64,000 nucleotides of DNA from Clostridium sp. 19966 (GTDB lineage: Bacteria; Bacillota; Clostridia; Clostridiales; Clostridiaceae). The DNA lies in assembly GCF_032335695.1 (NCBI RefSeq), contig NZ_JACTOJ010000004.1:194029-258028 (forward strand), read 5' to 3'. Positions 34,337 through 59,198 of the stretch are shown piece after piece (the stretch's first letter is position 1; every line of letters begins with the position of its first letter). The notes under the pieces were generated by a model. That model saw nothing but the letters and a program-made list of their open reading frames with translations. It had not been told where the DNA came from and ran no database searches. The translations under genes were made by a program, and so were the position numbers.

Positions 34337-35155
34337 TTAGATTAACTTGGATATGTCTACATCCTCTTTTAATTTCTCCACAAGATGCTTTACTTCTTGA
34401 TCCCTGTTCCTGTCCATTACTAAAATTACATTATCTGCTTCGACAATTATAAGATCTTTTACTCCAAAGCCTATTAGCAGCTTATCTTTGGAAAAAGCTA
34501 TGCAGTTTTCACTGTCCTCAAGCTTAACATTACCTTTTATATTGTTCCCCTCAGAAGTATTTAGGAATCTGCTTAGCGCTTGGAAGGTTCCGATGTCATC
34601 CCAAGGAAATTCGCTCTTTATCACATATGCTTTTCTTGTTTTCTGCAGCACTCCAAAATCTACAGATATACCATCTATAACTTCATACTGCTCTTTGATT
34701 ACCTCAGCTTCATCTTCCATGCCTACATGGGCATATATTTCCATAAGATTTTTGTAAAGCTTGGGAAGATATTTCTCTACTTCCCTAAGGAACACATCTG
34801 CTCTCCAAATAAATATACCGCTATTCCAAAGATATGTGCCTTTTAGCAAAAAGTCCTTAGCCACCTCTAGGTTAGGTTTTTCAGTAAATCTTTCCACTCT
34901 GTAAGCCAAAACATTAGTATTGGCTCTATTGCCCTTTTCTATATATCCATAACCAGTTTCCGGCCTAGTTGGCTCAATGCCTATGGTGACTAAGCCTCTT
35001 CTTCTCTCCGCAATCTCTACCGCTGAATCTATGGTATCTAAAAAGGTTTTTTCATCATCAATATGATGATCCGATGGAAATACCATTATTACTGCATCCT
35101 TATCCTTCTTTAATAGCTTAACTGCAGAAAGACCTATGCAGGTAGCAGTCTCTTT
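34337..35155 (-). pseudogene. C-terminal about 270 codons of a mannose-1-phosphate guanylyltransferase-like (sugar nucleotidyltransferase) gene, separated from its N-terminal part by the 23.8-kb insertion
   Basis: The frame is open upstream of the annotated Met back to the junction: (stop)KETATCIGLSAVKLLKKDKDAVIMVFPSDHHIDD... continues the nucleotidyltransferase fold where the 58.9-kb fragment stops (...FVEPANKET). Confidence 0.75.
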
Positions 35156-35183
35156 CTAGTGGCTATTGGTCTTTTAAGATATG

Positions 35184-36860
35184 TTAAGCCCTAAACTTAT
35201 AGAATATTTCCACCTTTTTTTCCATAGTCTCCTTATCCTCAGAAATAATTATTTTATCAATTAGAAGCTCTACTGTGCTCCTATCAAATTCTTCAAAAGC
35301 AAGTATTTTGTCTACAGTCAGTCTGTATTTGTCCTGAAGCTCAGCTTTATTATTCTCTTTTGATGCTATATTTATAATTTCATATTTTTTCTGTAACAAC
35401 TGCTGCTTTTTTTCAATTCCTGCAATCAGCATTTCTGCATTTCTTTCATTTATGATATGATTCAACTTGTCTTGATAAACCTTTTGAAACTGAACATCAA
35501 GTTTATTTAATTCTTTTTCAATAGAAATCAGCTGCTTTTTATGATCATCTGCGCTATCTAGAATAGAAATGGCCGCATTATACAAAGTTTCCTTGCTCAC
35601 GTATCTATATACATAATTTTTAAGATCCTTAATGATAGTTCTCTTTAGAAATTCTTCCTTCACTGAATGTGAGCTGCATCTTCCCCCGCCCCTTTGACTG
35701 TTAGTGCATTTGTATCCCTCATATTTTTCCCTATAGCACAGGGAGCCACCGCATTCATTACATCTAAGCACAGTTGTAAAGGGGTGCATGTTTTCTCCTT
35801 TATATCTATAGCTTTTTCTTCTATTTTTCATTGCCTGCTGAACTTCATTAAATATTTCTTGGGAAATTATACCTTGAAAATCCTCACCATAAATCCATTC
35901 TTCTTCATTTGTAGGAATCACTTTTTTTACTTTATAGCTTATTTTTCTCCATCTTTGCTGCACCATTTTGCCTGCATATTTTGGATTGGTTAATATATAG
36001 CGTATAGAGTTACTTGTCCAAAGTCCAAGCTTAGACTTAGAAAATCCATTAATATGGCAAGAAGGCGGCTCTATGCCTTTCTTATCTAAATAGCCAGCTA
36101 TCTTACCAACTCCCCAGCCATTTAAGTATAAAAAATATATTTCTTTCACAACCTCTGTGGTTTCATCCTCCGCTGCAATCAGCTTTATTGTTTTGGTATT
36201 GCCTTCGTAATATTCTACAAACCTATAGCCATAAGGAGGTTTACTTGCTATGGAGGATCCTCTTAGCATTCTTTGCTTTAAAGCATCCCTCACTTTTTTT
36301 GAGCAGTCTTTTATATACATTTCATTCAGTATATTTTTAAAAGGTATTATATCATTAAATTCCTGCTCAGTATCCACATTATCAAGAACTGAAACAAATC
36401 TTATTCCATTTACTTTAAAATAATCCTCTAAATAATATCCTGCGGTGATATAGTTTCTTGAAAACCTGGATAGATCTCTGGTTAAGACCATATTTATCTT
36501 TCCAGCTTCAATATCCTCTTTCATTCTTATAAAACCGTCTCTCTGAAAATTCGATCCTGAAAAGCCTGCGTCCTCATAAACTTCAACCAGCTCATAGCTG
36601 TGATTATCTTTGGCTTCGCTTTTGTCAAGAAGCCATTTTTTCAGGCTTTGCACCTGAGCTGGAATTGATTCCTGCTGCTCCTTCTTATCTGTAGATACCC
36701 TGGCATATATAGCTACCTTCCAAAGCTTCTCCATGTCATACGCCTGAGCTTTCATCTGGTAAATTCTCATTGCAGCTGCTTTTGTACGCTTCTCTTTTAT
36801 TTTTATCCAGTTTCCTATATATGAGTTTCTCCATAAGCTTCTCAAAGCTATCTTCACCAT
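35184..36860 (-). CDS. Large serine recombinase (resolvase/invertase catalytic domain, recombinase domain, zinc ribbon and coiled-coil); the probable start is Met43 (MEKLWKVAIYARVS)
   Basis: AIYARVST catalytic serine motif near the N-terminus; C-terminal Cys cluster CNECGGSLC...C; about 520 aa. Confidence 0.85.
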   Translation of the reverse strand: MVKIALRSLWRNSYIGNWIKIKEKRTKAAAMRIYQMKAQAYDMEKLWKVAIYARVSTDKKEQQESIPAQVQSLKKWLLDKSEAKDNHSYELVEVYEDAGFSGSNFQRDGFIRMKEDIEAGKINMVLTRDLSRFSRNYITAGYYLEDYFKVNGIRFVSVLDNVDTEQEFNDIIPFKNILNEMYIKDCSKKVRDALKQRMLRGSSIASKPPYGYRFVEYYEGNTKTIKLIAAEDETTEVVKEIYFLYLNGWGVGKIAGYLDKKGIEPPSCHINGFSKSKLGLWTSNSIRYILTNPKYAGKMVQQRWRKISYKVKKVIPTNEEEWIYGEDFQGIISQEIFNEVQQAMKNRRKSYRYKGENMHPFTTVLRCNECGGSLCYREKYEGYKCTNSQRGGGRCSSHSVKEEFLKRTIIKDLKNYVYRYVSKETLYNAAISILDSADDHKKQLISIEKELNKLDVQFQKVYQDKLNHIINERNAEMLIAGIEKKQQLLQKKYEIINIASKENNKAELQDKYRLTVDKILAFEEFDRSTVELLIDKIIISEDKETMEKKVEIFYKFRA

Positions 36861-37139
36861 TATAAAAAATTACTAATGGTTCTTTTTTTTGCATAAAAAA
36901 CTCCAGAATATTGATACTCATATTAGTATATGCAGCATGGAAGGATATTGTTAATTCGATATTCAATAGTCTATTAAGAAGCTTCTATTTAATTTGCTGC
37001 TACCTCCTCATATTTTAAAGTTTTTTTAATTTCATAGTGGAATATTACAAATTCACTTATATATTTCATGTTAATATTAAGCTTTGCTATGCTATGATAG
37101 TTTTATAATAAATACAGAACTAAATTAATAGGAATTGGA

Positions 37140-38219
37140 GTGAAATATATGGAAATGACCTTTAGATGGTACGGCGAAGGTAATGATTCTGTTACTTTAG
37201 AGCAAATTAAGCAAATACCAGGTGTTACTGGGATTGTATGGTCTCTTCATGATGTGGCAGCTGGTGAAGAATGGTCTATGGATAGAATTCTTAAGGAAAA
37301 AGAACTTATAGAAGCAAAAGGCTTCAATATAGATGTAGTTGAAAGCGTCAATGTTCACGAAGATATTAAACTAGGACTGCCTAGCAGAGAAAAATATATT
37401 GAAAACTATAAAAGAACTATAGAAAAGCTTGGAAAGGCTGGAGTTAAAGTAATCTGCTATAACTTCATGCCCGTATTTGACTGGACCAGAACTGATTTGA
37501 ATAAAAAGCTTCCAGATGGCTCAACAGCTCTTTTTTATGAGAAGGCTAAAATTGAAAATGCAAATCCTATGGAGCTGGTAGAAAAAATCGCAGTAGGAGT
37601 TAAGGATTATACCATGCCTGGCTGGGAACCTGAAAGATTATCCAAGCTAAAGGAACTATTTAAAGCCTATGAAAATGTGACGGAAGAAGATTTGTGGAAT
37701 AATTTAAAATATTTTCTTGAAGCAATAATACCTGTGTGTGAAGCCAATAATGTGAAGATGGCTATACATCCTGATGATCCTGCATGGCCAATATTCGGAC
37801 TTCCAAGACTTATAATAAATAAAGAAAATATAAGGAGATTTCTGAAGTTAGTGGACAGCCCGTATAATGGCTTAACCTTCTGCAGCGGTTCCTTAGGTTC
37901 AAATCCTAACAACGATCTTGTAGCAATGATTAAGGAATTTGCCCCAAGAATTCATTTTGCTCACATAAGAAATATAAAGCACTTCGAAAATGGAGATTTT
38001 ATAGAAACCGCTCATAAGGCCTCTGAAGGCTCTCTAGATGTGGTAGGAATGGTTAAGGCTCTCCACAGTGCTGGCTTTGCAGGCTATGTTAGACCTGATC
38101 ACGGCAGACATCTTTGGGGAGAAAAGTGCAGACCTGGCTATGGACTTTATGATAGAGCCCTCGGAATTATGTACCTTTGGGGAATATGGGATTCTCTCGA
38201 AAAAGGAAGTGAAAAATAA
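37140..38219 (+). CDS. uxuA: Mannonate dehydratase
   Basis: N-terminus MEMTFRWYGEGNDSVTLEQIKQIPGVTGIV closely parallels UxuA; 359 aa. Confidence 0.85.
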   Translation: MKYMEMTFRWYGEGNDSVTLEQIKQIPGVTGIVWSLHDVAAGEEWSMDRILKEKELIEAKGFNIDVVESVNVHEDIKLGLPSREKYIENYKRTIEKLGKAGVKVICYNFMPVFDWTRTDLNKKLPDGSTALFYEKAKIENANPMELVEKIAVGVKDYTMPGWEPERLSKLKELFKAYENVTEEDLWNNLKYFLEAIIPVCEANNVKMAIHPDDPAWPIFGLPRLIINKENIRRFLKLVDSPYNGLTFCSGSLGSNPNNDLVAMIKEFAPRIHFAHIRNIKHFENGDFIETAHKASEGSLDVVGMVKALHSAGFAGYVRPDHGRHLWGEKCRPGYGLYDRALGIMYLWGIWDSLEKGSEK

Positions 38220-39842
38220 ATGTCAGCTTTAAAATTAAGCAAGGAAAGTATAAAAGAAGCTTATGGATGGAAAGAAGTCGGAATTGAGCTTCCAAAATTT
38301 GATTATGAAGAAATGTCAGAGAAAACTTCAAGTAATCCAACCTGGATACACTTTGGCTCTGGCAACATCTTCAGAGGTTTTATAGCTATGCTTCAGCAAA
38401 AACTTTTAAATGATGGCAAGGCAGCTACAGGCATCATCGCAGCAGAGGGCTATGATTATGAAATTATAGATAGAATTTATACCCGATATGATAATCTAAG
38501 CTTACTAGTGATCATGAAGCCTGATGGAAGCCTAGAAAAAACAGTGGTAGGCAGCATAGCAGAAAGTCTGGCTGCAGATTTTCAAAGAGAAAGGGAATGG
38601 GAAAGACTAAAAGAAATCTTCAAAAAGCCTTCCCTGCAAATAGCCAGCTTCACCATAACTGAAAAAGGCTATGCATTAAAAAATATTTCTGATGAATATT
38701 TTCCTTTCGTGAAGGAAGATATGGCTGCAGGCCCTGATAAACCTAAAGGTATCATGGCTAAAGTGGCAGCGCTTGCTTACATAAGATATAAAAATGGAGA
38801 ACTTCCTATAGCTTTTGTAAGTATGGATAACTGCTCTAAGAATGGAGAAAAGCTTCAGAACTCAGTGCTTTCCATAGCTGAAAGCTGGGCAGCTTCCAGT
38901 TTTGTGGAAAATGAATTTATAGCCTATCTAAAAAATCCAGAAAAAGTATCTTTTCCTTGGAGCATGATAGATAAGATTACTCCTCGTCCATCAGACAGCG
39001 TAAAGGAAACTATAGAGAAGCTTGGTTTTGAAAGCACTGAAATAGTTTGTACCAAAGCACATACTTATATAGCACCTTTTGTAAATGCAGAAGGTCCTCA
39101 GTATCTTGTAATAGAAGACAGCTTTCCAAACGGACGAATGCCTTTAGAGGAAGCAGGAGTATTTTTAACTGATAGGGCTACAGTGCAAAAGGTAGAAACC
39201 ATGAAGGTTACAACCTGCCTTAATCCTCTTCATACTGCTCTTGCAGTTTTTGGATGTCTGCTTGGTTATAAGTCCATTGCAGAGGAAATGAAAGATCCTA
39301 TGCTTAAAAAGCTTGTGGAGGAGATAGGTTATACTGAAGGAATGCCTGTGGTGGTGAATCCCGAAATACTAAAGCCAGAAGAGTTCATTAGAGAAGTGAT
39401 AGAAGTTAGACTTCCTAATCCTTATATTCCGGACACTCCTCAGAGAATAGCCTCTGATACTTCTCAAAAGGTAGGTATAAGATTCGGTGAAACCATAAAA
39501 GCATATGCAAAGAGCCAAAGCTTAGATGCTAGGAAGCTTAAATATATTCCCTTAGCTATAGCTGGCTGGTGCAGATATCTTATGGGCCTAGCTGATTCAG
39601 GAGAACCTATGGAGTTGAGTCCTGATCCTTTGCTTAAGTTTCTCACAGCTTATGTTTCTCACATAAAACTTGGTGAAAAAACCTCCTTTAAGGATAATTT
39701 AAAGCCTATTCTTTCCAAGGAAGAAATATTTGGAGTAAATCTTTACGACCTAGGTTTAGGAGAAAAAATAGAAGGCTATTTTTCAGAGATGATTGCTGGA
39801 AATGGTGCTGTAAGAGCTACTCTTGAAAAATACTTAAAATAA
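38220..39842 (+). CDS. uxuB: Mannitol-dehydrogenase-family oxidoreductase (fructuronate/D-mannonate oxidoreductase-like)
   Basis: HFGSGNIFRG dinucleotide-binding motif of the long-chain mannitol DH family; translationally coupled to uxuA (the stop of uxuA abuts its start). Confidence 0.7.
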   Translation: MSALKLSKESIKEAYGWKEVGIELPKFDYEEMSEKTSSNPTWIHFGSGNIFRGFIAMLQQKLLNDGKAATGIIAAEGYDYEIIDRIYTRYDNLSLLVIMKPDGSLEKTVVGSIAESLAADFQREREWERLKEIFKKPSLQIASFTITEKGYALKNISDEYFPFVKEDMAAGPDKPKGIMAKVAALAYIRYKNGELPIAFVSMDNCSKNGEKLQNSVLSIAESWAASSFVENEFIAYLKNPEKVSFPWSMIDKITPRPSDSVKETIEKLGFESTEIVCTKAHTYIAPFVNAEGPQYLVIEDSFPNGRMPLEEAGVFLTDRATVQKVETMKVTTCLNPLHTALAVFGCLLGYKSIAEEMKDPMLKKLVEEIGYTEGMPVVVNPEILKPEEFIREVIEVRLPNPYIPDTPQRIASDTSQKVGIRFGETIKAYAKSQSLDARKLKYIPLAIAGWCRYLMGLADSGEPMELSPDPLLKFLTAYVSHIKLGEKTSFKDNLKPILSKEEIFGVNLYDLGLGEKIEGYFSEMIAGNGAVRATLEKYLK

Positions 39843-39848
39843 TGCAAA

Positions 39849-39885
39849 TAAAGCTGCCACATAAGCTGGCAGCTTTATTTTTTAG
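39849..39885. terminator. Bidirectional terminator (AAAGCTGCCA-cataagc-TGGCAGCTTT plus TTTTTT) between convergent uxuB and GH10 genes
   Basis: Seen in sequence. Confidence 0.7.
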
Positions 39886-40868
39886 AAGTTAAGTACTCTT
39901 GCAAGAGAGTTCTTAGGTTCTCCATTTATATCAAATAGCATTGGCCAGTCTTTTCTTCCTGGCACTGGAAAATTATCCTTCCAGGTGTACCTGTCACTTA
40001 TTCCCCAAAAGGTTACTGAAGCTACTACCTCCTTGTAGCTTCTAAAGGTTTCAAAAATATTATTATACATCTCTTCCTGAAGATAAAGCATCTCCTCCGT
40101 AGGCACTAACACATTCTTTCTTTTGTCTTCAAAGCTGAACATGGAAACATCTAATTCTGTTACTTGAAGCTGAAGACCTAGTGATGCATAGCCTTCTATA
40201 GCTCTTTTTAAATTTTCTATAAGCTGTTTGTCCATTATGTTCCAATGTCCCTGAAGTCCTACTCCATCTATGGGAGTGCCCTGAGCCTTCAGTTTTTTCA
40301 GCATATCATAGGATTTTTTAAATTTGTCTGGAAATTCGTTATTATAATCATTATAAATAAGCTTTGCAGCTCCAGTAAACTCTTTTGCAAGCTGAAAAAC
40401 AGTTTTAATATAGTCTTCCCCTAAAATTTTTCTCCAGCCAGTATCTCTGTACTGCTGATCAGTTTTATCTTCTATAGCTTCATTTACAACATCCCAAGCA
40501 TATATAACATCACCATATCTGCTGCAAAGAGTTTTTATATGCTCTTTCAATATTTCAAGCAGTTCTTCCTTATTCTTTTCAAAAAGCCAATGAGGATTTT
40601 GATTGTGCCATACAAAAGTATGTCCTCTCATCTTCATGTTATTACTCACTGCAAATTCCTTCATCCTGTCTGTTTTTTCAAAGTCATAGCTTCCTTCATA
40701 AGGATGAATTTCCCCAAATTTCATTGCGTTTTCAGCAGTTAAGCTATTAAAATGCTTTTTAAGGAGCTCTCCCTGAATTCCCTGAAAATCCTCAACTCTT
40801 ACAGCGGCTCCAATTTTAAAGTAATCCCTGTAAGCTTCACATAACGATAAAATGGAATTATTACTCAT
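39882..40868 (-). CDS. GH10 endo-1,4-beta-xylanase, intracellular (no signal peptide)
   Basis: GHTFVWHNQNPHW and VTELDV (nucleophile) motifs; 328 aa. Confidence 0.85.
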   Translation of the reverse strand: MSNNSILSLCEAYRDYFKIGAAVRVEDFQGIQGELLKKHFNSLTAENAMKFGEIHPYEGSYDFEKTDRMKEFAVSNNMKMRGHTFVWHNQNPHWLFEKNKEELLEILKEHIKTLCSRYGDVIYAWDVVNEAIEDKTDQQYRDTGWRKILGEDYIKTVFQLAKEFTGAAKLIYNDYNNEFPDKFKKSYDMLKKLKAQGTPIDGVGLQGHWNIMDKQLIENLKRAIEGYASLGLQLQVTELDVSMFSFEDKRKNVLVPTEEMLYLQEEMYNNIFETFRSYKEVVASVTFWGISDRYTWKDNFPVPGRKDWPMLFDINGEPKNSLARVLNF

Positions 40869-40892
40869 AAATACACTCTCCTTATCACTACT

Positions 40893-42920
40893 TTATTCGT
40901 ATATCTTTCTTCCCTTTACATCTCCAATGCCTGTTCTCCTATAAAAATAAGTATTAACTACATCTCTCCACTCTTTAGAATCCTTAAGCTGCACAGAGAA
41001 TTTATCCATAACAAGCTTAAAGAATTCTTCATTTATCTTTCCTTCTAAAGATGTCCATTTTTCTATGAACTCTTCTACCTTTTCTACTCCTTCAAAATGG
41101 GTATCATATATATGCTGCAATAAAGTTTTACCGCTATTTAATTTATAGCTGTAGGGGACATGATGAAAGAATAACAAAAGTTCTTCAGGACAAGTATCTA
41201 TTTTTTCATACCTTGAAGCTATGGGTTCATTATACTGACAAGTATACCCTGTTCCAGTTGCAGCAGTTCTGTCCACTCCAATACCTCTGAAATCCGCATA
41301 ATGATAAGTTCCCCAGAGTGAATACTCATATCCATCTACGCTTGGCCCATAGTGATGGTTTGGATTGACCATCCAGCCTATCCCTAAAGGGCTGGTGTAT
41401 TTTTCATAGACTTCCCTTGATTCTAGCAGCATAGAAACTATTTTTTTTACCACTTCTTCCTCGCAGCCAAAAGTAATCTTGCTCCATTCCTCTGCTATAG
41501 CCTCTGAAGTAAGCTCTGGATTCCAGGCAAGTCTTCCAAAGCCATATAAATTAGCCTGTGCCAGCGGATGCCCTGTCCAGCACTGGCTGTCCCCAAGATT
41601 TGAAACAGCGGCTATGCCACCATGTTTTCTATGAAAAATACTTCCAGCTGCCACCTTTCTCACATAGGAACCTTCACCTTTTGCATAAGTATCAAAATTA
41701 ACAACTTCCTTCCACATAGGCAGAAGATAGCACAAATGCTTTTGCTGGCCCGTATATTCCTGAGCTGCCTGAAATTCCAGCATTATATTTGTATCTTTCA
41801 TAGCTCCAAATAAAGGTGAAACTGCCTCCCTTATTTGAAAGTCCATAGGACCATTCTTTACCTGTAATATCACATTATCCTTAAACTTGCCATCTAAAGG
41901 CTTAAAATTATCATAAGCTGCTTTAGCTCTATCCTTGGATCTATCTCTCCAGTCGAGCTGACAGTTATATACAAAGCATCTCCAAATCACTAAGCCTCCA
42001 AAAGGTTCCAAAGCTTCTGCCAGCATATTAGCCCCATCCGCATGATCCCTTCCATAGGTAAAAGGTCCTGGTCTGTATTCTGAATCTGCTTTTACCAGAA
42101 AGCCTCCAAAATCAGGAATGTATTCATAAATCAAATCTGCTGTTTCTCTCCACCAGGCTTTTACTTCTTCAGCAAGCGGATCTGCGGTGGCAAGCCCTCC
42201 AATTTCTATAGGAGCTGCAAAATTAACGCTCAAATAAGTTTTAATTCCATAAGTTCTAAACTCCTTTGAAAATGCAGCTATGTAAGGAAGATATTCTTCT
42301 GTTATAAATTTTGTCTCATATTGATGTACATTAACATTATTTATAACTACTCCATTTATGCCTACGGAAGCTAAAATTCTTGCATAATCCTTGATTCTAG
42401 CAGAATCCTTAATTATTTCATTATCCTTATAGAAAAAAGATTTACCTGCATAGCCTCTTTCTATATCACCGCTTATGTTATCCCAATGGTCTATAATTCT
42501 TAATTCGTTTGCAGGAGCATCCTCAAGCAAAGCTTCCTCTAAGCTTTTTCCTGTGACCATTGCTCTTATAAAGCTAAAAACTCCATAAAGCACACCATTA
42601 TCGTCTTTCCCAAGGATTTTGATAGCTTTATCTTCATCAAAGCTCTGTATTTTGAAGCCTTCCTTAGCCAAATTTTCTTCTTTTGCTGCCTTCAAAAATA
42701 AATACTGCTCTGACCCTGATATTTCACATACAACCTTTGGAGTTGTACCGAATATCCTATTGATAGCAAAGCTCAACTCTTTTATTGCTGAAGCTATTAT
42801 AGGACTAGTTTCTTCAATATAGATTGTACTGCAAAACCTTCTGTATTCTTCCTTTGAGCTTAAGGCTTCACCATTGCTATAATTTAACCAACATTCATAA
42901 ACGCCGCCTCTATTATCCAT
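40893..42920 (-). CDS. aguA: GH67 alpha-glucuronidase; the ORF extends to 42953, and the likely start is at 42920 ([14 protein letters not shown]) with an AAGGGAGAG RBS
   Basis: [10 protein letters not shown] and the overall roughly 680 aa architecture match AguA. Confidence 0.8.
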
Positions 42921-43068
42921 AAAACACTCTCCCTTAGCTACAAAAATATGCACTTAAATTATGTCTGAATTATAAATTTTATTTATCTTTTAAACCATAT
43001 AATATATAATTGTATTTGTACTATTTAACTATATAATTTTATAAAAAGCCTATTAAAGCTTTAAGCTA

Positions 43069-43935
43069 ATGAATAAATCATGGGGGAATGAATGGACTAT
43101 GGATATATCCTCAAAAGACTTATTAAGCAATATATTCCCGGATGCTTATTACGCTGTTCATAGAAACTGCCAGCCTTCCTGGAAGCTAAACAGGACTACT
43201 CTTAATTTTCACAATCTGATGCTTATATATGATGGAGAAGGTACCTTTTATAAGGATGGAGACAGGTTTACGGTAAGCAAGGGAGAGCTAATATATTTTA
43301 AGCCTGGAGATATCCGGGAAGCTTATACCTCTTCTTCAAAGCTTATGAAATGCTTTGCCGTTGAATTTTTATATACCTGCCCAATTCTAAAGGATTCCCA
43401 TTGGCAGCTTCAGGACTGTGATTTGCCCTTTAGCACCTGTCAGAGGATTGAGGATGAATATTTATTCAGAAGACTTATGGATTTGTTTACTGAGTTTACG
43501 GATTTGAAGCTTTCCATGAAGGGTACTGCTGCAGTTAAGGAGAGGGCACTATTTACAGAAATACTATCCCTTTTAATTAAATACAAAAACGGAACCCATT
43601 ACAGCTATTCCAATCTAAAAAAGGTGGAAAAGGTTGTTAACTACATGGTTCAGAATTACACCGAAAACATAACCTTAAAAAAGCTAGGGGATTATCTTAA
43701 TATCAGCCCTTCTTATTTGGGTAATATATTTAAGGAAGTTACAGGCCAATCCGTCATAGATTATTTGATTCATATAAGAATTAATAAAGCCAAGCATTTT
43801 TTAATTGATGGCCTCACAGTTTCTGAAACTGCAAAAAAAGTTGGCTTTAATGATATATTTTATTTCAGCAGAGCCTTTAAAAAATATGAGGGCTTAACTC
43901 CCTCCCAATTCGCAGAAAATCCAACAGCTTATTAA
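43069..43935 (+). CDS. AraC-family transcriptional regulator (cupin sensor plus C-terminal dual HTH)
   Basis: C-terminal AraC signature (SPSYLGNIFKEVTG...FYFSRAFKKYEGLTPSQF). Confidence 0.85.
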   Translation: MNKSWGNEWTMDISSKDLLSNIFPDAYYAVHRNCQPSWKLNRTTLNFHNLMLIYDGEGTFYKDGDRFTVSKGELIYFKPGDIREAYTSSSKLMKCFAVEFLYTCPILKDSHWQLQDCDLPFSTCQRIEDEYLFRRLMDLFTEFTDLKLSMKGTAAVKERALFTEILSLLIKYKNGTHYSYSNLKKVEKVVNYMVQNYTENITLKKLGDYLNISPSYLGNIFKEVTGQSVIDYLIHIRINKAKHFLIDGLTVSETAKKVGFNDIFYFSRAFKKYEGLTPSQFAENPTAY

Positions 43936-46900: not shown

Positions 46901-47364
46901 TGCTTTATGGATACGTATATTCCATCCGTGACTATATGATTTTTGTCCCTTGTCTTCAGCCACACATTTCTATATATACCTGCTCCCGAATACCATCTGC
47001 TGTTTGGACCTTGATGAACCACTTTCAGCAGTATCTCATTTTCTCCCTCTGCCACTGCCTCTGTTATATCATGTTCAAAGGAAGAGTACCCATATTTCCA
47101 CTGTCCAATAGGCTTTCCATTCACATATAGAGCGGAATCCATATATACTCCCTCAAAGAACAATAGAAGCTCCTTTTCTTTTTTACTGTAGATAAATTTC
47201 TTACGATACCAGCCAATGCTGTCTCCATAAAGCTTTAAGCTATCATATATAAGCCAATCATGAGGCAAATCAACGGCTTCAAACTTAAGCCCTTTGCAGT
47301 CTTCCTTTTCCAAGCCGCTTTTAGCAAATTCCCAGCCTTCATTAAAAAGAATTTTATTATTCAT
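43954..47364 (-). CDS. Large GH2-family glycoside hydrolase (beta-galactosidase-like) with C-terminal accessory beta-sandwich domains
   Basis: 1136 aa; N-terminal NEGWEF...LPHDW sugar-binding region, GH2 catalytic region around NEIYDTHAGE. Confidence 0.7.
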   Translation of the reverse strand: MNNKILFNEGWEFAKSGLEKEDCKGLKFEAVDLPHDWLIYDSLKLYGDSIGWYRKKFIYSKKEKELLLFFEGVYMDSALYVNGKPIGQWKYGYSSFEHDITEAVAEGENEILLKVVHQGPNSRWYSGAGIYRNVWLKTRDKNHIVTDGIYVSIKHQKANWKVEIDTEVKLYEAAEISHSISYKGEVIAASSEAVEVGEGSINTQCLRVEKPLLWSTDAPNLYQLKTELYLKESKELIEVIYQNIGFREIVLDSQEGFKLNGTKMKLNGVCEHHDLGALGAAFNKAALRRRFLILKDMGVNAVRTSHNMPAPELMELADELGMLILSEAFDMWEKPKTPYDYARFFKDWAHKDVKSWIRRDRNHPSLIMWSIGNEIYDTHAGERGQEITKMLMDYVREYDPKENAKITIGSNFMPWENAQKCADIVKVAGYNYAERYYEKHHQAHADWVIYGSETGSVVQSRGIYHFPYAKSVLADDDEQCSSLGNSTTSWGAKSPEACILAERDTPFSLGQFIWTGVDYIGEPTPYHTKNSYFGQIDTATFKKDSYYIYQAEWTDYRIKPMVHLFPYWDFNVGQLIDVRICSNAPKVELFINGASLGSYNINHEQGRQLLAWYKVPYEPGEIKAVAYDEKGKIIATELRSSFEDAEKVCLTADKKQLTADGRDLIFVEITMKDKKVNLVENANNRVTVKVTGAGRLLGLDNGDSTDYDQYKGTSRRLFSGKLMAIIGASLEAGDIHVEVSSKGMESESLDFQAVPAEKAINGISAIMKNSDLPCVMGSLEEIPLRKIEIISSSGQLFNENLRELYVEAKLYPENTSYKEIEWSAVNASGIVSNIAKVEALGAKAKITALGDGEFRVRCTSKNGSDKTKLISQLEFKAEGLGTAFKDPYTFISAGLYDYSNGEVGNGNERGVATSREGETQVGFHGIDFGAYGSDTITLPIFALSNAKYSLQIWEGMPGEEKSSLLADVIYQKESIWNVYQEETYKLSKKLKGITSICFVLHDKVHIKGFYFEKKNRAFQQNRAVECDHIYGDTFTLKEDIVQGIGNNVSLEFESLDFTAQGASKLVIYGNSPIDKNTIHIQLDSAEGSIRQIVEFTHSNGYEERIFELEKIEGAQKVTFVFLPGSNFDFGWFRFEN

Positions 47365-51872: not shown

Positions 51873-52856
51873 TTATTTCTGATCTGCTTCAAATACTATT
51901 CCAGCGGATTTTCTCGCTGAAACCACTGTTTCCACAACCCTTAGAGAATGCTCTAAAAGCTCCTGGCATTTTTTTAAGTCTTCTTGCTTATAAATATTAT
52001 TAAAATCTATTAATTCATACACCATTCTATTAGAAATATTTTGTTCATTGTAAGTCTCTAAATTTCCTTGGCTTTCTATCTCCACGGAAAGGCAATGATT
52101 CACTGGACTATTTACCTTTATATATCCCTTGGTGCCTTGTATAATGGCAAAGCTAGGACTTTGAGAATCCTTTGCTCCAACACATTCACATACAAAATTA
52201 TCATACTTTAATGTGACCACTCCTGAGGTATCAATGCCATTAGCAGCAATATTGGCAGAATACTTCACTTCTCTTGGAGCTCCGAATAGCCCCACTGTAA
52301 AATGTAGATTATACACATTTATATCCTGAATAGCTCCTCCTGAAAACTTTGGGTCAAAGGCATTGGTTATTTCTCCTGCTAAAAATTTATCATATCTGCT
52401 GGAATATTGAGAATAGTTGCTTTGAACCAGTCTTATCTCACCTATAGAGGAAAGCAGCTGCTTAAGCTTATTATAATTTGGCAGATGCAATGTGGTGATA
52501 GCTTCAAATAGAAATAAATTTTTTTCTTTTGCTAAAGCTATTAAAGTTTTTGCCTCTTCTACCGTAGAGGTAAAAGGTTTTTCACAAATAACATGCTTAC
52601 CATTATTCAGGGCCTCCAGAGCATACTCATAATGAAAGCTGTTAGGTGAAGCTATATAGATAAAATCCACATTGCTATCCTTTAGCATCTCTTTGTAATT
52701 TGTGTATATCTGCTTTACTCCATATTTATCTGCTAATATCCTCCCAGTCTCTTCTTTTCTGGAAAAAACAGCACTGCATTGGACTCCTTCAACTTCCTTT
52801 ACTGCATTTAAAAATTCTTCTACGATTCTTCCCGTTCCTATAGTAGCTATTTTCAT
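51873..52856 (-). CDS. Gfo/Idh/MocA-family NAD(P)-dependent oxidoreductase
   Basis: N-terminal MKIATIGTGRIV Rossmann motif; 327 aa. Confidence 0.8.
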   Translation of the reverse strand: MKIATIGTGRIVEEFLNAVKEVEGVQCSAVFSRKEETGRILADKYGVKQIYTNYKEMLKDSNVDFIYIASPNSFHYEYALEALNNGKHVICEKPFTSTVEEAKTLIALAKEKNLFLFEAITTLHLPNYNKLKQLLSSIGEIRLVQSNYSQYSSRYDKFLAGEITNAFDPKFSGGAIQDINVYNLHFTVGLFGAPREVKYSANIAANGIDTSGVVTLKYDNFVCECVGAKDSQSPSFAIIQGTKGYIKVNSPVNHCLSVEIESQGNLETYNEQNISNRMVYELIDFNNIYKQEDLKKCQELLEHSLRVVETVVSARKSAGIVFEADQK

Positions 52857-53061: not shown

Positions 53062-53946
53062 ATGTGGATAAATCACAAGCTCGAATATCTTAAAACTTTG
53101 TCTTCCTCTGAAAAAATTTTAGCGGAGTATATATTAAATAATGGGGAAGATATCTTATCCATGTCCTCTCATCAATTAGCCTCAGCTACCTACACTTCAC
53201 CTGCAACAGTTATTCGTTTTTGCAAAAAATTAGGTTTTAAAGGCTATTCTGATTTTAAATTTAAATATTCTGTAGAGCTGAAATCAAGCTCTATGCAAAA
53301 TGAAAATATTGATTTTAATTTACCTTTTAAGAAGGGTGATTCTATTAAAGATATCAGTTACAATTTGGGCAATTTATATAAGGAGTCCATAGAAGATACC
53401 TTAAAATCACTTAATTTTAACACTCTTAATAGTGCTGTAGATTTATTATTGAACTCTAAAATAATAAAAATATTTGGTGTTGGCAGCAATTCCCCCTATG
53501 CCGTTGATTTTCAATATAAGATGATGCGCATAGGTTATTTGGTGCAAATGGCGCCACTTCCTACAGAGCAGCATATTTTTGCTCTTAACAGCAGTGAAGA
53601 TACCTGCGCAATACTCATATCCTATTCTGGTGAAACTCAGGATATAATCGATATTGCCCACATCTTAAAAAATAACAATACTCCTATTGTAGCCATTACT
53701 TCTTGTGGAGATAATAGGCTTTCAAAATATGCTCAATATAAAATCCATGTATGCTCCAGAGAAAATATAGTTTCAAAAATATCTACCTTTTCTTCAGGAA
53801 TCTCTATTCAATTCGTATTAGACATAATTTTTTCCTGCGTATTTGAAAAAAATTATAATAACAATTTAGCTCACAAGGTAAATCACGCAAAACAGGTAGA
53901 GGCTCATACAAAGCTGCTGAAAGAAGATATAATTAAAAATTATTAA
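53062..53946 (+). CDS. MurR/RpiR-family transcriptional regulator (HTH plus SIS domain)
   Basis: N-terminal HTH_6-type helix, C-terminal SIS phosphosugar-binding fold features. Confidence 0.75.
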   Translation: MWINHKLEYLKTLSSSEKILAEYILNNGEDILSMSSHQLASATYTSPATVIRFCKKLGFKGYSDFKFKYSVELKSSSMQNENIDFNLPFKKGDSIKDISYNLGNLYKESIEDTLKSLNFNTLNSAVDLLLNSKIIKIFGVGSNSPYAVDFQYKMMRIGYLVQMAPLPTEQHIFALNSSEDTCAILISYSGETQDIIDIAHILKNNNTPIVAITSCGDNRLSKYAQYKIHVCSRENIVSKISTFSSGISIQFVLDIIFSCVFEKNYNNNLAHKVNHAKQVEAHTKLLKEDIIKNY

Positions 53947-53990: not shown

Positions 53991-53992
53991 CT

Positions 53993-56425
53993 TTATTTTA
54001 TATCATATACACTTCTTACTTTTAGGTTTTTAGCTTCTCCCTGCAGAAGCTTAACTCTAGCTTCACCAGAATTAAGATCAAAGTAATTATCCGATAAAAG
54101 CATATCTGCATCCAGGCTGTAAATTTCAATACCCTTTGCAAATTTCTCTGCTTTTATTATTACCTCATCACCCTTAACCTCTACAGAAAGCTTAGGATCT
54201 AAAAATTTAAAATACTTCGGTGCTGCAAACAATACAGTGCCTCCAGAGATGCGTTCACCATTTTTATACATATCGTAGCTTACATATTGGCTGTAGGGAT
54301 CTGCATCATCAAAGCTGACTTTTTCCAGCCATTCGCTGCTTAGAGCTTTTACCCTTACCTCATAGAATTTAGTTTCTACCACTGTTCCATCATTGTTTCT
54401 AAGGGCCCAGCTGACTGTAACCTGCTCCTCTGACATAGTCTCATTAGCAATGCATAGCTGAATGCTCTTTTCCAGGGCAAAGGATTCAGCATTCACATTA
54501 GTATTCTGAGTCAAGGTGCTTTCCTCACAGCAGGATAGCATAAGCGGTGCAAAAAATCTTTTAGCAAAATAGTGAAGCGCCTTCCATCGGCCAAAATAAT
54601 CTATGGATGCCCAGGAAGCTACCGGCCAGCAGTCATTAAGCTGCCAATAAATTGCTCCCATGCATCTTCCTCGATATCTTCTAAAATGCTCCACTCCATA
54701 CTTTATAGCCTCAGCCTGAAGCATTTGAGACGCATACAAAAGAGTATCAAAATCTGTAGGATATAGGTAGGTCTGCTGCATATAATTTATTATCTTACCG
54801 TTTGCTACATTATTCCTCTGATGCTTTTCCATCACATAGGAGAAAATATTTCTATCCTCAAGAAGAGTGAAGCTTTCCACAGTCTTTAAACAGGGGAAGG
54901 ATTGAAAGCCAAATTCTGATAAATATCTAAAATGAAACTTTCTGTATTCTGTAAAAGGCTTATTTCCATGCCATACATCCCAGTAATGAGTATCTCCTCT
55001 ATTAGAGGAATTAGGTTCATCAAAGGCTCCACCAGAGGATGGACTTGAAGGCCAATAGAAGGTATTAGGATCGTATTCCTTTAATATCTCTGGAATAATA
55101 TACTCAAATAGACGTATATAGTCTGCTTTATGAATTGGTTTTGTATACCACAAACCATCATTAGCAAAGCTCTCCATCTCATTGTTTCCGCACCATAATC
55201 CTAGGGAAGCATGATGCCTTATTCTCTTCACATTGTCTATAGTTTCTTTTTTAATCGTGTCTATAAACTCAGGAGTAAGAGGACACTGTGCACAGGCATA
55301 CATGAAATCCTGCCACACCACTAATCCTAATTCATCACAAAGCTCAAAGAAGAAATCTTCAGGATAATATCCGCCGCCCCATACTCTTATGGAATTAAAG
55401 TTAACTGCTATGCAGTCCTTAAGGAGCTTACGAGTTCTATCTTTATTGATTCTTGATAATATATTATCCTCTGGTATGTAGTCTGCTCCCATAGCAAAGT
55501 AGGCAACTCCGTTAACCACCTGCTTAAAGCTTTCTCCATACTCATCTTCCTCACGCTTAACGGTGAGAGTGCGAAGACCTATCTTCTTATCCCATACATC
55601 CAAAACCTTCTCATTTTTTACTAAGGTTACTTTTATGCCGTATAAATTCTGCTCCCCGTATCCATTAGGCCACCAGAGTTTTGGATTTTCTATGCTTACG
55701 GTTTTAGGAGAATTATCATAAACCTTCACTTCACCCTGAGGACTTACTATAGTTACTACATATTGAGCTTCATAGTCTAAAACAGCTTTATCTACAGAAA
55801 CTTCAATATTTAATTTAACCTGATTTTCCTCATGCACTTGGGTTACATAAACACTGTCAATTCTAGCAGTATTTATGCCTAGCAGTGATACCTCTCGCCA
55901 AATACCTGCATCGGGAAGTCTTGGGCCCCAGTCCCAGCCCATCATGGAATAGCCTTTTCTTATGTGAGGAAAACCAGCCATGCAGTCACTTACGCCATCT
56001 GCAAACACTTTTTCATTTTCTTCTTTTATATATTTATTAGGAGAAAAAAACTCTACCGCAAGCTCATTGCTTTCATCATTCACAAGTTTTTTCACATCAA
56101 ACTCCCAGGTTCTGTGCATATTATTAACATCACCTAGGCAGATACCGTTAAGCAGCACCTTTCCTATGGTATCAAGACCTTCAAACCTTAGCAGTACTTT
56201 GTCAGAATTTAAAATTTCTTCTGGTACGCTAAAATTTGTCTTATATTCAAAGTCGTTATCCATTATTTTCAGAGCCTCATTTTCGTTAGCTCTCCAATAA
56301 GGATCCTCCATTTTATTATTTAAAAGTAAATCATTATATACGGAGCCTGGAACTTTAGCTGGGACAAATTCCGCTTCTCCTGCAATTCTCATGGACCATC
56401 CATCATGAAGCTTTTTTATATTCAT
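53993..56425 (-). CDS. GH2-family exo-glycosidase, beta-mannosidase-like
   Basis: 810 aa; N-terminal LHDGW...VPGSVYNDLL pattern typical of GH2 beta-mannosidases; paired with GH36. Confidence 0.6.
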   Translation of the reverse strand: MNIKKLHDGWSMRIAGEAEFVPAKVPGSVYNDLLLNNKMEDPYWRANENEALKIMDNDFEYKTNFSVPEEILNSDKVLLRFEGLDTIGKVLLNGICLGDVNNMHRTWEFDVKKLVNDESNELAVEFFSPNKYIKEENEKVFADGVSDCMAGFPHIRKGYSMMGWDWGPRLPDAGIWREVSLLGINTARIDSVYVTQVHEENQVKLNIEVSVDKAVLDYEAQYVVTIVSPQGEVKVYDNSPKTVSIENPKLWWPNGYGEQNLYGIKVTLVKNEKVLDVWDKKIGLRTLTVKREEDEYGESFKQVVNGVAYFAMGADYIPEDNILSRINKDRTRKLLKDCIAVNFNSIRVWGGGYYPEDFFFELCDELGLVVWQDFMYACAQCPLTPEFIDTIKKETIDNVKRIRHHASLGLWCGNNEMESFANDGLWYTKPIHKADYIRLFEYIIPEILKEYDPNTFYWPSSPSSGGAFDEPNSSNRGDTHYWDVWHGNKPFTEYRKFHFRYLSEFGFQSFPCLKTVESFTLLEDRNIFSYVMEKHQRNNVANGKIINYMQQTYLYPTDFDTLLYASQMLQAEAIKYGVEHFRRYRGRCMGAIYWQLNDCWPVASWASIDYFGRWKALHYFAKRFFAPLMLSCCEESTLTQNTNVNAESFALEKSIQLCIANETMSEEQVTVSWALRNNDGTVVETKFYEVRVKALSSEWLEKVSFDDADPYSQYVSYDMYKNGERISGGTVLFAAPKYFKFLDPKLSVEVKGDEVIIKAEKFAKGIEIYSLDADMLLSDNYFDLNSGEARVKLLQGEAKNLKVRSVYDIK

Positions 56426-56531: not shown

Positions 56532-58721
56532 TTACTGACGGATAAAATGCAGAAGCTTTCCTTTGAAATCTCCCCATAGTCCTTTAATTAAAACTCCGCC
56601 ATTCATGAGCGCTGCTCCTGAATATACTTCTCCAGTTTCTTCGTTTTTGTAGAAGGCAGCCTTGTCTAGTCCTTTTAATCTGATTCTTCTGCTGTGGTAA
56701 TTAGGGCGGTTCAGCACCTGAACATAGGTTACCAACACTTCTCCCTTATCCTTTGAAACATATTCAACGCAGCCAAACTCAGGATTTCGGAAAAGGTTTG
56801 CTATACGATACAAATCGCCCGTTCTGATTAGCTCATTATACTTATGATACATTGCTACCTGCTGTGGTATCATATCCCTATCTTCCTGAGGTATTCTTGT
56901 AACATCAAGCTCATAGCCAAAGGTTCCTGAAAGTGCTACAAAGCCTCTTGTTTCAAAAGGAGTAACTCTTCCCACAGTATGATTTGGGCAATCACTTACA
57001 TGTGCTCCCATAGCTGATACAGGATATACTAGTGAGGTGCCATGCTGAATCTTAAGTCTTTCGATGGCATCCGTATCATCTGAAGCCCATATCTGAGGAC
57101 TGTAATAAAGCATTCCTGGATCTAATCTAGCACCGCCGCCAGAGCAGTTTTCAAGAAGTACATGAGGAAATTCTGAAGTTAATCTATCCATTAATTCATA
57201 AACTCCAAGCATATATCTATGCCATATCTCTCTTTGTCTGTCTGCTGGAAGTATGCTGTTGCCTACATCACTAAGCTGACGATTCATATCCCATTTAACA
57301 TACTCGATATTTGCACTGGTCAGTATCTTTCTTAAGCTTTCATATACATATTCTCTGACCTCTTCCCTTGATAAATCCAATACATACTGATTTCTGCAAA
57401 GGGTTCCTACTCTTCCATCAATATGTATGCACCAATCTGGATGAGCTCTAAAAAGATCTGAATCTGGAGATATCATTTCAGGTTCAAACCATATTCCAAA
57501 TTTCATTCCTAATTTGTTTACTTCATCTACTAAATATTTCAGACCGCCGTTTATTTTTTCTTCATTTACCACCCAGTCCCCTAAAGCAGAATTATCGCTG
57601 CTTCTATTGCCAAACCAGCCATCATCCATAACCAACATTTCAATGCCTAGCTTTGAAGCTTCTTTTGCTATGTTCAAGAGCTTTTCAGTATTGAAATCAA
57701 AATAAGTAGCTTCCCAGTTATTTATTAATATAGGACGCTTCTTATCTTTATATTCTCCTCTGATTAAGTGATTTCTATATAAATCATGGAAGGTTCTAGA
57801 CATCTTTCCTATACCTTCATTGGAATAAACCATAACCACTTCTGGTGCAGCAAATTCTTCCTGTGGTTCTAGCTTCCATCCGAAATCAAAAGGATTGATT
57901 CCCATAACAACTCTTGTGGAATCAAACTGTGAACCCTCTGTCTGAGCTAGGAAATTTCCTGAATATACGAAATTAAAGCCGTACACTTCACCGCTGTCTT
58001 CAGTTGCTGTCTTATCCAGCACTGCTAAAAATGGATTCATCTGATGGCTGGATTCTCCTCTAGCTGAAGATATGGACTGAACTCCTAAAGTTACTCCTCT
58101 TCTATTTATATGTCTCTCTCTTGCCCAAGAGCCATGAAGAGTTATCACATCCATATCTATTCTGTCAAAATCTACACAAGCAGATAATACTCTGGTTAAT
58201 TCTATAGATTCATCAGCACAGTTTTTTACTCTCACACTTCTAGTGATAACATCCAAATTTTCAAAAACAGTATATATTAAAACTATTTCTAGATTTAAAT
58301 GCTTATCTATGCAAGTCACTTCTAAAGTGGTACATTCTTTTTCATCCCCAAAGGTAGCTGGCAAACCTTTTAGTTTAGGTTTTCCTGCATATATTTTATG
58401 AGAAGCATAGGAGATTCCGCAAGCAGTCATTCCAGCATTTGTTCTAACCTGAAGGCAGGATTCTCTAAAGTCCCCTAATCCGCTGGTAGAATATTCTGTA
58501 GGAAAACAATCTAAAAATGACATTCTATCTCTATTATTTTTTGAAGGCACAAAAGGTGACTCCTCTAAACGCATTAGATAGTTAACATCCTCATCTGGAA
58601 GCTTTTCACCAAAATAAACGTGTCCTAAAAATTGTTCTTCATCAACAATTGCCATAATATAACTTGTACCTTTTGCATCTAGCTTAAAGGATTTCGATTT
58701 TTCATTAAAACTTATACCCAT
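56532..58721 (-). CDS. agaA: GH36 alpha-galactosidase
   Basis: 729 aa; central catalytic KWDMN and C-terminal beta-sandwich. Confidence 0.85.
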   Translation of the reverse strand: MGISFNEKSKSFKLDAKGTSYIMAIVDEEQFLGHVYFGEKLPDEDVNYLMRLEESPFVPSKNNRDRMSFLDCFPTEYSTSGLGDFRESCLQVRTNAGMTACGISYASHKIYAGKPKLKGLPATFGDEKECTTLEVTCIDKHLNLEIVLIYTVFENLDVITRSVRVKNCADESIELTRVLSACVDFDRIDMDVITLHGSWARERHINRRGVTLGVQSISSARGESSHQMNPFLAVLDKTATEDSGEVYGFNFVYSGNFLAQTEGSQFDSTRVVMGINPFDFGWKLEPQEEFAAPEVVMVYSNEGIGKMSRTFHDLYRNHLIRGEYKDKKRPILINNWEATYFDFNTEKLLNIAKEASKLGIEMLVMDDGWFGNRSSDNSALGDWVVNEEKINGGLKYLVDEVNKLGMKFGIWFEPEMISPDSDLFRAHPDWCIHIDGRVGTLCRNQYVLDLSREEVREYVYESLRKILTSANIEYVKWDMNRQLSDVGNSILPADRQREIWHRYMLGVYELMDRLTSEFPHVLLENCSGGGARLDPGMLYYSPQIWASDDTDAIERLKIQHGTSLVYPVSAMGAHVSDCPNHTVGRVTPFETRGFVALSGTFGYELDVTRIPQEDRDMIPQQVAMYHKYNELIRTGDLYRIANLFRNPEFGCVEYVSKDKGEVLVTYVQVLNRPNYHSRRIRLKGLDKAAFYKNEETGEVYSGAALMNGGVLIKGLWGDFKGKLLHFIRQ

Positions 58722-58932
58722 TATTCTCCTCCATTCATTACAAGTAATGGTTACTCATAGTGTTATAACTCTAAAACATACTTATGCACAGAATTATATT
58801 TGAATGACTTTTAATACGATTACATTACAAGTAACCCACCTTAACATTTGCTTATATAATACTTTATTTTTAAGTAACAAGTCAATTTTTTTAAGTGATT
58901 TTAGAGAAATGACCAATATCCTATAATAAGGG

Positions 58933-59198
58933 GTCTCTTTGTTAGCAGGTTCTACAAATATGTTTTCTTCATTTATTTCTGGAAGCTCTTCTTTCACCTT
59001 TTCATGATATTCATCGTTAGTTACCACATATATATTTTCCTTATTTATCATCGGTTTTATTCTATCCACTGTATTCCTCAAAAAGCTTTTATTATTAATA
59101 AGCTTTAAAAATTGCTTGGGTTTATCCGACCTAGAAAGAGGAAAGAGTCTTGTACCTTTTCCTCCCGCAAGAATTAGTGCATACAACAATTTCATCAC
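58933..59198 (-). pseudogene. N-terminal about 88 codons of the split mannose-1-phosphate guanylyltransferase-like gene; the annotated ORF 58794-59198 reads through into the island
   Basis: MKLLYALILAGGKGTRLFPLS (nucleotidyltransferase G-x-G-x-R loop) ... NIFVEPANKET, then unrelated read-through. Confidence 0.75.

Follow-up and report, generated by a model that had tools for sequence, protein, structure and literature searches.

A large serine recombinase element splits the mannose-1-phosphate guanylyltransferase gene manC in Clostridium sp. 19966: a probable intervening element of a sporulation gene

The split manC gene

The window analysed here, a stretch of 64,000 nucleotides from Clostridium sp. 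19966 (contig NZ_JACTOJ010000004.1, positions 194,029 to 258,028), contains a gene that is divided into two fragments by an element encoding a large serine recombinase (LSR), and whose predicted product is a mannose-1-phosphate guanylyltransferase (ManC, also GMP), the enzyme making GDP-mannose (Table 1). A first-pass annotation had described a nucleotidyltransferase gene split by a serine-recombinase element, and this description holds, as both fragments align contiguously to single homologues. On the minus strand, the 5' fragment reads MKLLYALILAGGKGTRLF...FVEPANKET and then passes into element sequence unrelated to manC; the gene resumes with KETATCIGLSAV at position 35155, from where the frame reads ...KETATCIGLSAVKLL...VIMVFPSDHHIDD down to its stop at 34337, so that translation bore out both the end of the 5' part and the extent of the remainder as originally described. 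The N-terminal fragment covers positions 2-84 and the C-terminal fragment positions 85-237 of the NTP_transferase profile (PF00483), and the two fragments are therefore contiguous. The joined gene exhibits the layout of GMP enzymes of about 350 amino acids (aa), with the NTP_transferase domain followed by a beta-helix domain (PF22640).

The joined product has an intact open frame and comprises 355-357 aa, rather than the approximately 345 aa estimated at first. Alignment of fragments and joined gene to intact homologues, as the annotation had proposed, was end-to-end: the joined ManC is 76-77% identical to uninterrupted 355-aa Clostridium ManC proteins over 99% of the length (best named match: C. 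thermarum), and it aligns to the Thermotoga maritima GMP structure 2x5s over residues 4-347, ungapped at the junction (E=4e-76). Neither fragment in the window has stops or frameshifts. In case of the gene start, ATG 59195 was replaced by TTG 59189, two codons further on, as the likelier start: it is preceded by a ribosome-binding site (RBS; GGAG, 59201-59198) and matches homologues beginning LLYALILAGG. That manC is split by an integrated LSR element is near certain.

Element junctions and attachment sites

The junction at the 3' gene fragment sits 12 bp past the recombinase stop codon. The octamer GTCTCTTT had been put forward as the core shared by the attachment (att) sites attL and attR, and it is indeed found at both break points (35148-35155 and 58933-58940); however, the window has 6 copies where 2.9 are expected, and alone it is not significant. 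Its weight derives from its location, as it coincides with the two break points and with the middle of the attP site of the window, a 46-bp imperfect dyad (22+2+22 bp) with arms symmetric at 16/22 positions and centred on the non-palindromic dinucleotide GT/AC. In an alignment of the two junctions of 23 loci, read in the direction of the gene, the stretch of identity between attL and attR varies from 4 to 12 bp, and AC alone is common to all pairs. With AC alone shared by all junction pairs and the octamer not rare in the window, the 8-bp repeat was rejected as the crossover core, which is probably the 2-bp AC (gene strand), extended to an octamer by similarity between the attP and attB half-sites.

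In relatives, the reconstructed attP is a near-perfect inverted repeat of 17-18 bp, GACCTATATCGTCTATAA ... TTATAGACGATATAGGTC, whose arms are separated by about 10 bp. Measured from the centre, the outer motif TATAGGTC begins approximately 14 nt away in attP and approximately 10 nt away in attB, an outward shift of about 4 bp; an outward displacement of the outer (zinc-ribbon) motif in attP by about 5 bp is expected for the sites of large serine recombinases. Joining the flanks of the element gives GAACCTGCTAACAAAGAG-AC-TGCTACCTGCA, which encodes EPANKETATC and matches the attB region in the intact genes of C. thermarum, C. tetani and C. pasteurianum. The predicted junctions are GCAGGTAGCA-GT-CTCTTTGTTAGC for attB and AATAAGGG-GT-CTCTTTCTAGTGG for attP.

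The recombinase and its upstream open reading frame

The recombinase gene had been placed at 35184-36860; its LSR domains (PF00239, PF07508 and PF13408) were all found over cut-off, whilst its start most likely lies at 36755, giving a protein of 523 aa that is identical to P0121 of Clostridium sp. 19966. The protein is full length and retains every invariant column of a 32-sequence alignment, including the serine of the YARVS motif. The position of the gene just inside the left junction, beside the 3' gene fragment, was confirmed, and this layout recurs in about 45 other species. The LSR is presumed capable of attP x attB integration and, with a directionality factor, of attL x attR excision.

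A small open reading frame (ORF), the 3' end of which overlaps the LSR start region, lies directly upstream. It belongs to a family of 45-65 aa with the N-terminal motif ~h-V-x-F/Y-Y-G-x-E-D-F-x-K-L-h-x-K-h-h. A profile built from 25 loci, with the window excluded, was searched against 16,945 ORFs: it scores the window ORF at E=3.7e-10 and matches only ORFs ending at an LSR start, in about 50 loci. The small ORF has no match among Pfam or PHROG families, and a single-sequence phmmer search against 1.8 billion representatives returned only the protein itself and one relative. Because the directionality factors GirX and CD1234 of the gin and skin elements (see below) are likewise orphan proteins of 42-72 aa, we propose the small ORF as a candidate recombination directionality factor, possibly of a new family.

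The leader of this operon contains a promoter-like sequence of mother-cell type (Table 1), which overlaps the window copy of the hairpin described below. Across loci, a sigma-K-like pattern is found upstream of the small ORF in 7/47 (background 1.3%) and CATAyAnT in 14/47 (background 3%). About 60 nt upstream of the small ORF, a leader hairpin was also observed in a number of loci (L001, L004, L009, L013, L017, L021, L024-L026, L036, L040, L045 and L046). It consists of 11 bp followed by a T-run, its 3' arm holding the RBS of the small ORF and its 5' arm a CATA-type -10-like element; compensatory changes are seen at 7 of the 11 pairs across loci, and the presence of G-U pairs indicates an RNA structure. 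Speculatively, the hairpin could act as a terminator or as an RBS trap for read-through transcripts, bypassed when transcription starts within the loop. In some loci a second LSR, 27-35% identical to that of the window, stands in tandem just upstream of the small ORF (L001:4356-5960; L004:8281-9750, C. cibarium; also L008, L014, L020, L030 and L037), an arrangement like that of girA/girB in gin.

Cargo of the window element

The 12 cargo genes (Table 1) are, by their predicted functions, a 21-kb cluster for glucuronoxylan and hexuronate utilisation, that is, for the digestion of plant fibre. Clostridium sp. USBA 49 and C. oryzae have the same gene order, GH115-UxaC-GH2, at ordinary chromosomal loci, where the homologous GH115-UxaC-GH2 and UxuA-UxuB groups are accompanied by ABC transporters; no transporter is encoded in the cargo, in contrast to the homologous locus of Clostridium sp. 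USBA 49 (L087). Pfam annotation of the 12 cargo ORFs revealed no phage structural, packaging, lysis or replication genes, and neither these ORFs nor the minimal elements described below include relaxase, coupling protein or type IV secretion genes. Outside the element, at 16095-20984 on the minus strand, genes for a xylulokinase (xylB), a transaldolase, a ROK regulator and a xylA/xylose isomerase-like protein complement the xylan/glucuronate cargo.

Table 1. Coordinates of the split manC gene, the intervening element and its cargo in the window.
Feature	Position	Strand	Basis or detail
manC 3' fragment, codons ~88-355 + stop	34337-35147	-	Translation; PF00483 profile positions 85-237; ManC_GMP_beta-helix
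Junction at 3' gene fragment	35127-35171	.	manC half-site 35127-35147, crossover GT 35148-35149, arm 35150-35171 (CTCTTTCTAGTGGCTATTGGTC)
Intervening element, 23,785 bp between the two crossover dinucleotides	35150-58934	.	Junction sequences
Large serine recombinase, 523 aa	35184-36755	-	Resolvase, Recombinase, Zn_ribbon_recom and DUF4368 domains
Conserved small ORF, 52 aa (MQKKEPLVIFYNGEDSFEKLMEKL...), candidate recombination directionality factor	36736-36894	-	RBS GGAG 36904-36901
Leader of small-ORF/LSR operon	36895-36951	-	AC 36951-36950, N17, CATATACTA 36932-36924, mother-cell-type promoter-like
uxuA (mannonate dehydratase)	37140-38219	+	Pfam
Mannitol-dehydrogenase-family oxidoreductase, uxuB-like	38220-39842	+	Pfam
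GH10 xylanase	39882-40868	-	Pfam
GH67 alpha-glucuronidase	40893-42953	-	Pfam
AraC-family regulator	43069-43935	+	Pfam
GH2 with CBM6	43954-47364	-	Pfam
uxaC glucuronate isomerase	47404-48804	-	Pfam
GH115 alpha-glucuronidase	48805-51651	-	Pfam
GFO/IDH/MocA oxidoreductase	51873-52856	-	Pfam
RpiR/SIS regulator	53062-53946	+	Pfam
GH2 beta-mannosidase-like	53993-56425	-	Pfam
GH36 alpha-galactosidase	56532-58721	-	Pfam
Junction at 5' gene fragment	58911-58955	.	Arm 58911-58932 (GACCAATATCCTATAATAAGGG), crossover GT 58933-58934, manC half-site 58935-58955
manC 5' fragment, codons 1 to ~87	58935-59195	-	Translation; PF00483 profile positions 2-84
Sigma-K-type promoter of manC	59218-59245	-	AC 59245-59244, 17-nt spacer, CATATAATG 59226-59218

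A manC-dedicated clade of recombinases

A truncated C-terminal ManC fragment comes directly after each of the three LSRs closest to that of the window (76, 72 and 66% identity), whilst their cargo differs. We surveyed one genome per species by scanning with the 32-recombinase alignment, which yielded 80 loci. An LSR at least 46% identical to that of the window is present in 51 of these, and apart from six exceptions every one of them has a ManC fragment that begins at residue 85-88, mostly within about 100 bp of the LSR stop codon. In two of the six exceptions the contig ends too soon and in one there is no ManC match in the 1.7 kb after the LSR; the remaining three are the most distant members (one from Thermotaleaceae and two from Geosporobacter). 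No ManC match was found at the 29 loci with an LSR of 28-35% identity. The clade thus spans about 45 species of the Clostridium group, including C. botulinum, with manC broken at the same codon.

The N-terminal fragment (residues 3-89) is also visible in 24 loci, giving element sizes of 2.8-10.6 kb; at 23.8 kb, the window element is the largest measured. Only the LSR, the small upstream ORF and the att sites are common to all elements. The cargo of minimal elements comprises a DNA glycosylase with a GIY-YIG protein, a secreted repeat protein, an ABC transporter or dehydrogenases, and the minimal elements of 2.8-4 kb are without transfer, replication or phage genes. Amongst sequenced phages and plasmids there is no LSR more than 33% identical to that of the window: the best are 31-33% identical, the nearest named one being TndX of Tn5397 (31%), and the clade is chromosomal. 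A phage origin of the window element was rejected on the lack of phage genes in the cargo and a best phage LSR of 31% identity, and an origin from a plasmid or an integrative and conjugative element such as Tn5397 on the lack of conjugation genes and the 31% identity to TndX.

In C. botulinum (L089 and L090, 6461-12384) the same split manC encloses an element of about 4.9 kb, and the LSR was found on about 45 contigs. This element holds a 2-hydroxyacid dehydrogenase, a nitroreductase, a recombinase zinc-ribbon remnant and a YnaG-like ORF; the 3' fragment of manC in L089 is not called as a gene.

A second interruption of manC was observed near codon 203-206, with a shared core of approximately GAGAGCAGAT, in L049 (14423-19184, C. 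akagii), L051, L053 and L036, and probably also in L016, L019, L047 and L040. The element at this site, near codon 205, carries another serine recombinase (about 26% identical to that of the window and on the opposite strand) together with a full-length pyruvate carboxylase of 1142-1172 aa, and in the carrier species manC is therefore in three pieces. At L047, L049, L051 and L053 (around 10001-11100) the manC-type LSR matches residues 8 to about 380 only, and 3-5 kb separate it from the middle fragment of manC; the first element may be decaying or itself interrupted in these four loci.

Genes for a purine DNA glycosylase and a GIY-YIG protein lie inside the manC element in L003 (7323-8292), L024 (2184-3055) and L026 (8925-9796), whilst in C. 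pasteurianum (L086, 6239-6853 and 15937-16197) the same genes lie outside, near an uninterrupted manC, which suggests that manC elements come to enclose ordinary chromosomal neighbours. Together with the pyruvate carboxylase of the codon-205 element, the enclosed glycosylase/GIY-YIG genes thus indicate that the elements seem to absorb chromosomal neighbours. Enclosing host genes would be tolerable if excision takes place in the mother cell of sporulation only.

Promoter and sporulation context of manC

Upstream of manC, the pattern AC-N16-17-CATAnnnT[AG], following the sigma-K consensus (PMC3789822), is present in 24/24 split loci, compared to 0.6% of background windows. Its -35 element is usually tCACa and the motif ends 21-29 nt before the annotated start; a motif of sigma-K type also precedes 3/3 uninterrupted manC genes. 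A sigma-E pattern was found in 0/24 loci, so that the sigma-K type is preferred, and a sigma-A reading was rejected: although a TATAAT is embedded in the sequence, there is no acceptable -35 or extended -10 element. In C. tetani and several other species manC adjoins CotS/YutH-type spore-coat kinases and GT4 glycosyltransferases. In the window, a GT4 gene lies 3.5 kb downstream of manC.

The catabolic, non-phage cargo and the conserved sigma-K-type promoter of manC together point to an intervening element of a sporulation gene rather than an ordinary island. We thus consider it probable that the manC element is a non-phage intervening element of the skin, SPbeta/spsM and gin/gerE kind that is excised in the mother cell, although this developmental excision is something that we infer from sequence. 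During sporulation, the LSR, with the small protein as directionality factor, would recombine both junctions in the terminally differentiated mother cell, releasing the element as a circle and rebuilding manC; sigma-K RNA polymerase would then transcribe the rebuilt gene, providing GDP-mannose for spore-surface glycans, whilst the forespore would keep the element and so ensure its inheritance. As excision would take place only in a dying cell, the interior of the element can hold ordinary vegetative genes.

The promoter also bears on a different role for excision, namely a reversible vegetative switch in which excision and re-integration would toggle GDP-mannose-dependent surface glycosylation in a subpopulation (phase variation). 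There is precedent in the yin element of C. botulinum, which at every stage of growth is found excised in some of the cells (PMC10747680), and an LSR without its directionality factor can re-integrate. In spite of this we regard such a switch as very improbable: the manC promoter is of sigma-K type with no good sigma-A -35, and the excised circle has no replication genes, so that dividing cells would lose both the circle and its 12 catabolic genes.

Selection on manC and inheritance of the element

The reconstructed manC is intact and of the expected length in 18/18 rebuildable loci, in which every LSR is intact as well, and the ratio of nonsynonymous to synonymous substitution rates (dN/dS) of rebuilt manC between element-bearing species is 0.04-0.09, a sign of strong purifying selection. 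The divergence of the LSR parallels that of manC within two groups (L012/L015/L054 and L024/L025/L026), so the common ancestors of both groups probably already carried the element while manC stayed under selection. Other close hosts exhibit LSRs that are 57-59% identical alongside ManC proteins of about 89-90% identity, and elements must therefore also have been replaced horizontally. LSR and ManC distances are only moderately correlated (Pearson 0.61, Spearman 0.28), which together with the clear replacements led us to reject strict vertical inheritance: on these comparisons, inheritance of the element is mixed, both vertical and horizontal.

These data are central to the main rival reading, an ordinary genomic island: here, the LSR would have inserted a catabolic island at a chance attB in manC, inactivating the gene, with excision being rare and non-developmental. 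Conserved genes are common targets of LSR islands, and insertions by serine integrases often disrupt a domain (PMC7192596); furthermore, LSR sub-lineages have been swapped between close hosts, so that integration recurs, the regulatory motifs preceding the recombinase module are missing from some loci, and many Clostridium species have an uninterrupted manC. Against this, both halves of manC have been maintained under the low dN/dS described above, including in the lineages in which the LSR has co-diverged, and such long-term integrity weakens the island reading because a gene dead for that long should decay. An island also accounts poorly for minimal elements that have no genes for transfer, replication or phage functions, for core genes amongst the cargo (such as the pyruvate carboxylase of the sister element), for the absence of the clade from sequenced phages and plasmids and for the conserved sigma-K-type promoter on manC. 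We therefore judge an ordinary island to be unlikely, whilst excision in the mother cell remains our preferred explanation.

Evidence weighing against mother-cell excision

Several observations count against mother-cell excision. The directionality role of the small ORF is still that of a candidate, and promoter-like motifs precede this ORF in just 7-14 of the 47 loci, though they are enriched (about 10-fold for the leader motif). The sigma-K promoter of manC is a consensus match and not a mapped start site; the association of manC with CotS and GT4 genes is modest (7-8/52 manC loci compared to 1/39 control loci); and no sporulation gene was identified in the window, spore formation being assumed from the genus. 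Horizontal replacement of elements partly weakens the argument from purifying selection. Exact scans of metagenome contigs for the attP circle and for repaired attB junctions gave 0 hits, a result that is uninformative. Finally, the window copy of the leader hairpin (36895-36945, minus strand) is decayed: 4/11 pairs are broken and it folds no better than shuffled sequence.

The decayed hairpin would also fit a fixed dead insertion, in which the recombination system of Clostridium sp. 19966 is defunct and manC a two-piece pseudogene, as would the unusual size of the element (23.8 kb compared to 2.8-10 kb elsewhere). However, the full-length LSR has kept all clade-invariant residues, the small ORF is intact and fits its family profile, the attP arms still match at 16/22 positions around the central dinucleotide, and neither manC fragment is broken by a stop or a frameshift, all of which makes a dead insertion improbable.

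Flanking genes in the window

Between the manC stop and a pair of crcB genes (33369-34166) lies a fluoride riboswitch (Rfam RF01734, 50.5 bits; 34225-34285, minus strand), the position of which makes the crcB genes a separate regulatory unit. The divergent neighbour of manC on the other side (59333-60234, plus strand) is a WYL-type regulator that is apparently split into an ORF with HTH_11 and WYL domains (59333-60010) and an overlapping ORF with a WCX domain (59992-60234); this may reflect a frameshift or a sequencing error.

Comparison with known intervening elements

Interrupted sporulation genes form a class that includes skin/sigK, SPbeta/spsM, vfbin/spoVFB, vrin/spoVR, gin/gerE and yin/yabG (PMC5499854, PMC10747680, PMC4191935, PMC5595907, PMC5025042). 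The closest functional parallel to the manC element is SPbeta/spsM of Bacillus subtilis (SprA with SprB), in which an LSR element splits a sigma-K-controlled gene for spore-surface sugar nucleotides and polysaccharide. SPbeta is an active 134-kb phage. The manC element, in contrast, has no phage genes, and the target, host genus and recombinase clade differ, with the best phage LSR at 31% identity. In SPbeta, mother-cell excision rebuilds spsM, and the directionality factor is small and under a mother-cell promoter (PMC4191935, PMC5499854).

The closest structural parallel is gin/gerE of Bacillus cereus (GirC with GirX), likewise not a prophage, whose working parts are one LSR and a tiny directionality factor: GirX is an orphan protein of 42 aa, and the att site is an imperfect inverted repeat with a short shared core and a predicted central dinucleotide (PMC5595907). 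Unlike the manC element, gin targets a transcription factor gene in Bacillus and carries three recombinases. In the manC element, the gene for the candidate factor immediately precedes that for the LSR, with which it seems to form one transcription unit, and a 21-kb catabolic cluster makes up the cargo.

The skin element of Clostridioides difficile (sigK; CD1231 with CD1234) is, like the manC element, a clostridial LSR element in a mother-cell gene. The recombinase of skin carries out integration by itself; excision is restricted to the mother cell through a small orphan protein that is controlled by sigma-E/SpoIIID (PMC5025042). In contrast to the manC element, skin is prophage-like and splits a sigma factor gene, and its recombinase is constitutive with the factor gene non-adjacent. 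A further LSR element within a gene of Clostridium sensu stricto is yin in yabG, a sigma-K-dependent gene of C. botulinum, for which excision and circularisation have been shown by polymerase chain reaction (PMC10747680). Unlike the manC elements, which are found in about 45 species and have no phage genes, yin resembles a prophage and is known from a single strain. The closest named LSR relative in mobile-element collections, TndX of Tn5397, is also a large serine recombinase but only 31% identical. Tn5397 carries conjugation genes, and these are not present in the manC element.

Implications for Clostridium sporulation

In full-text literature searches, with subscription journals outside their coverage, manC was not found as an interrupted sporulation gene; the sole trace is an uncommented line ('Cpe2.18.algA', NTP_transferase disrupted) in the supplementary table of the TIGER survey (PMC7192596). 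What is new here is the target manC, the recombinase clade, the candidate family of directionality factors and the unusual catabolic cargo. Taking a wider view, we tentatively suggest, as a possibility that goes further than the excision of the window element, that the manC elements, a large family, and the family near codon 205 are undescribed and largely domesticated serine-recombinase 'cassettes' by which spore-surface mannosylation is switched during development, in convergence with SPbeta/spsM, and which form chromosomal compartments that absorb host genes because they are lost only from the genome of the mother cell. If so, differentiation would involve the programmed somatic deletion of vegetative metabolic genes: examples of absorbed genes would be the 21-kb glucuronoxylan island in the window and, elsewhere, the pyruvate carboxylase, the DNA glycosylase and the ABC transporter. 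Targeting of spore-surface glycan genes would then be convergent between Bacillus (spsM) and Clostridium (manC).

The window element is a clear example of an intervening element with ordinary catabolic cargo and bears on how such elements persist and grow. The clade is also of interest for integrase tools, as it combines a new group of LSRs with natural attB and attP sites that are well defined across orthologues and with a candidate family of directionality factors. As regards annotation, manC 'pseudogenes' in carrier genomes should not be taken to indicate loss of function. If excision is confirmed, manC would join sigK, spsM, spoVFB, spoVR, gerE and yabG amongst the sporulation genes controlled by DNA rearrangement, and it would be by far the most widespread case in Clostridium, with about 45 species representatives including the C. 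botulinum group.

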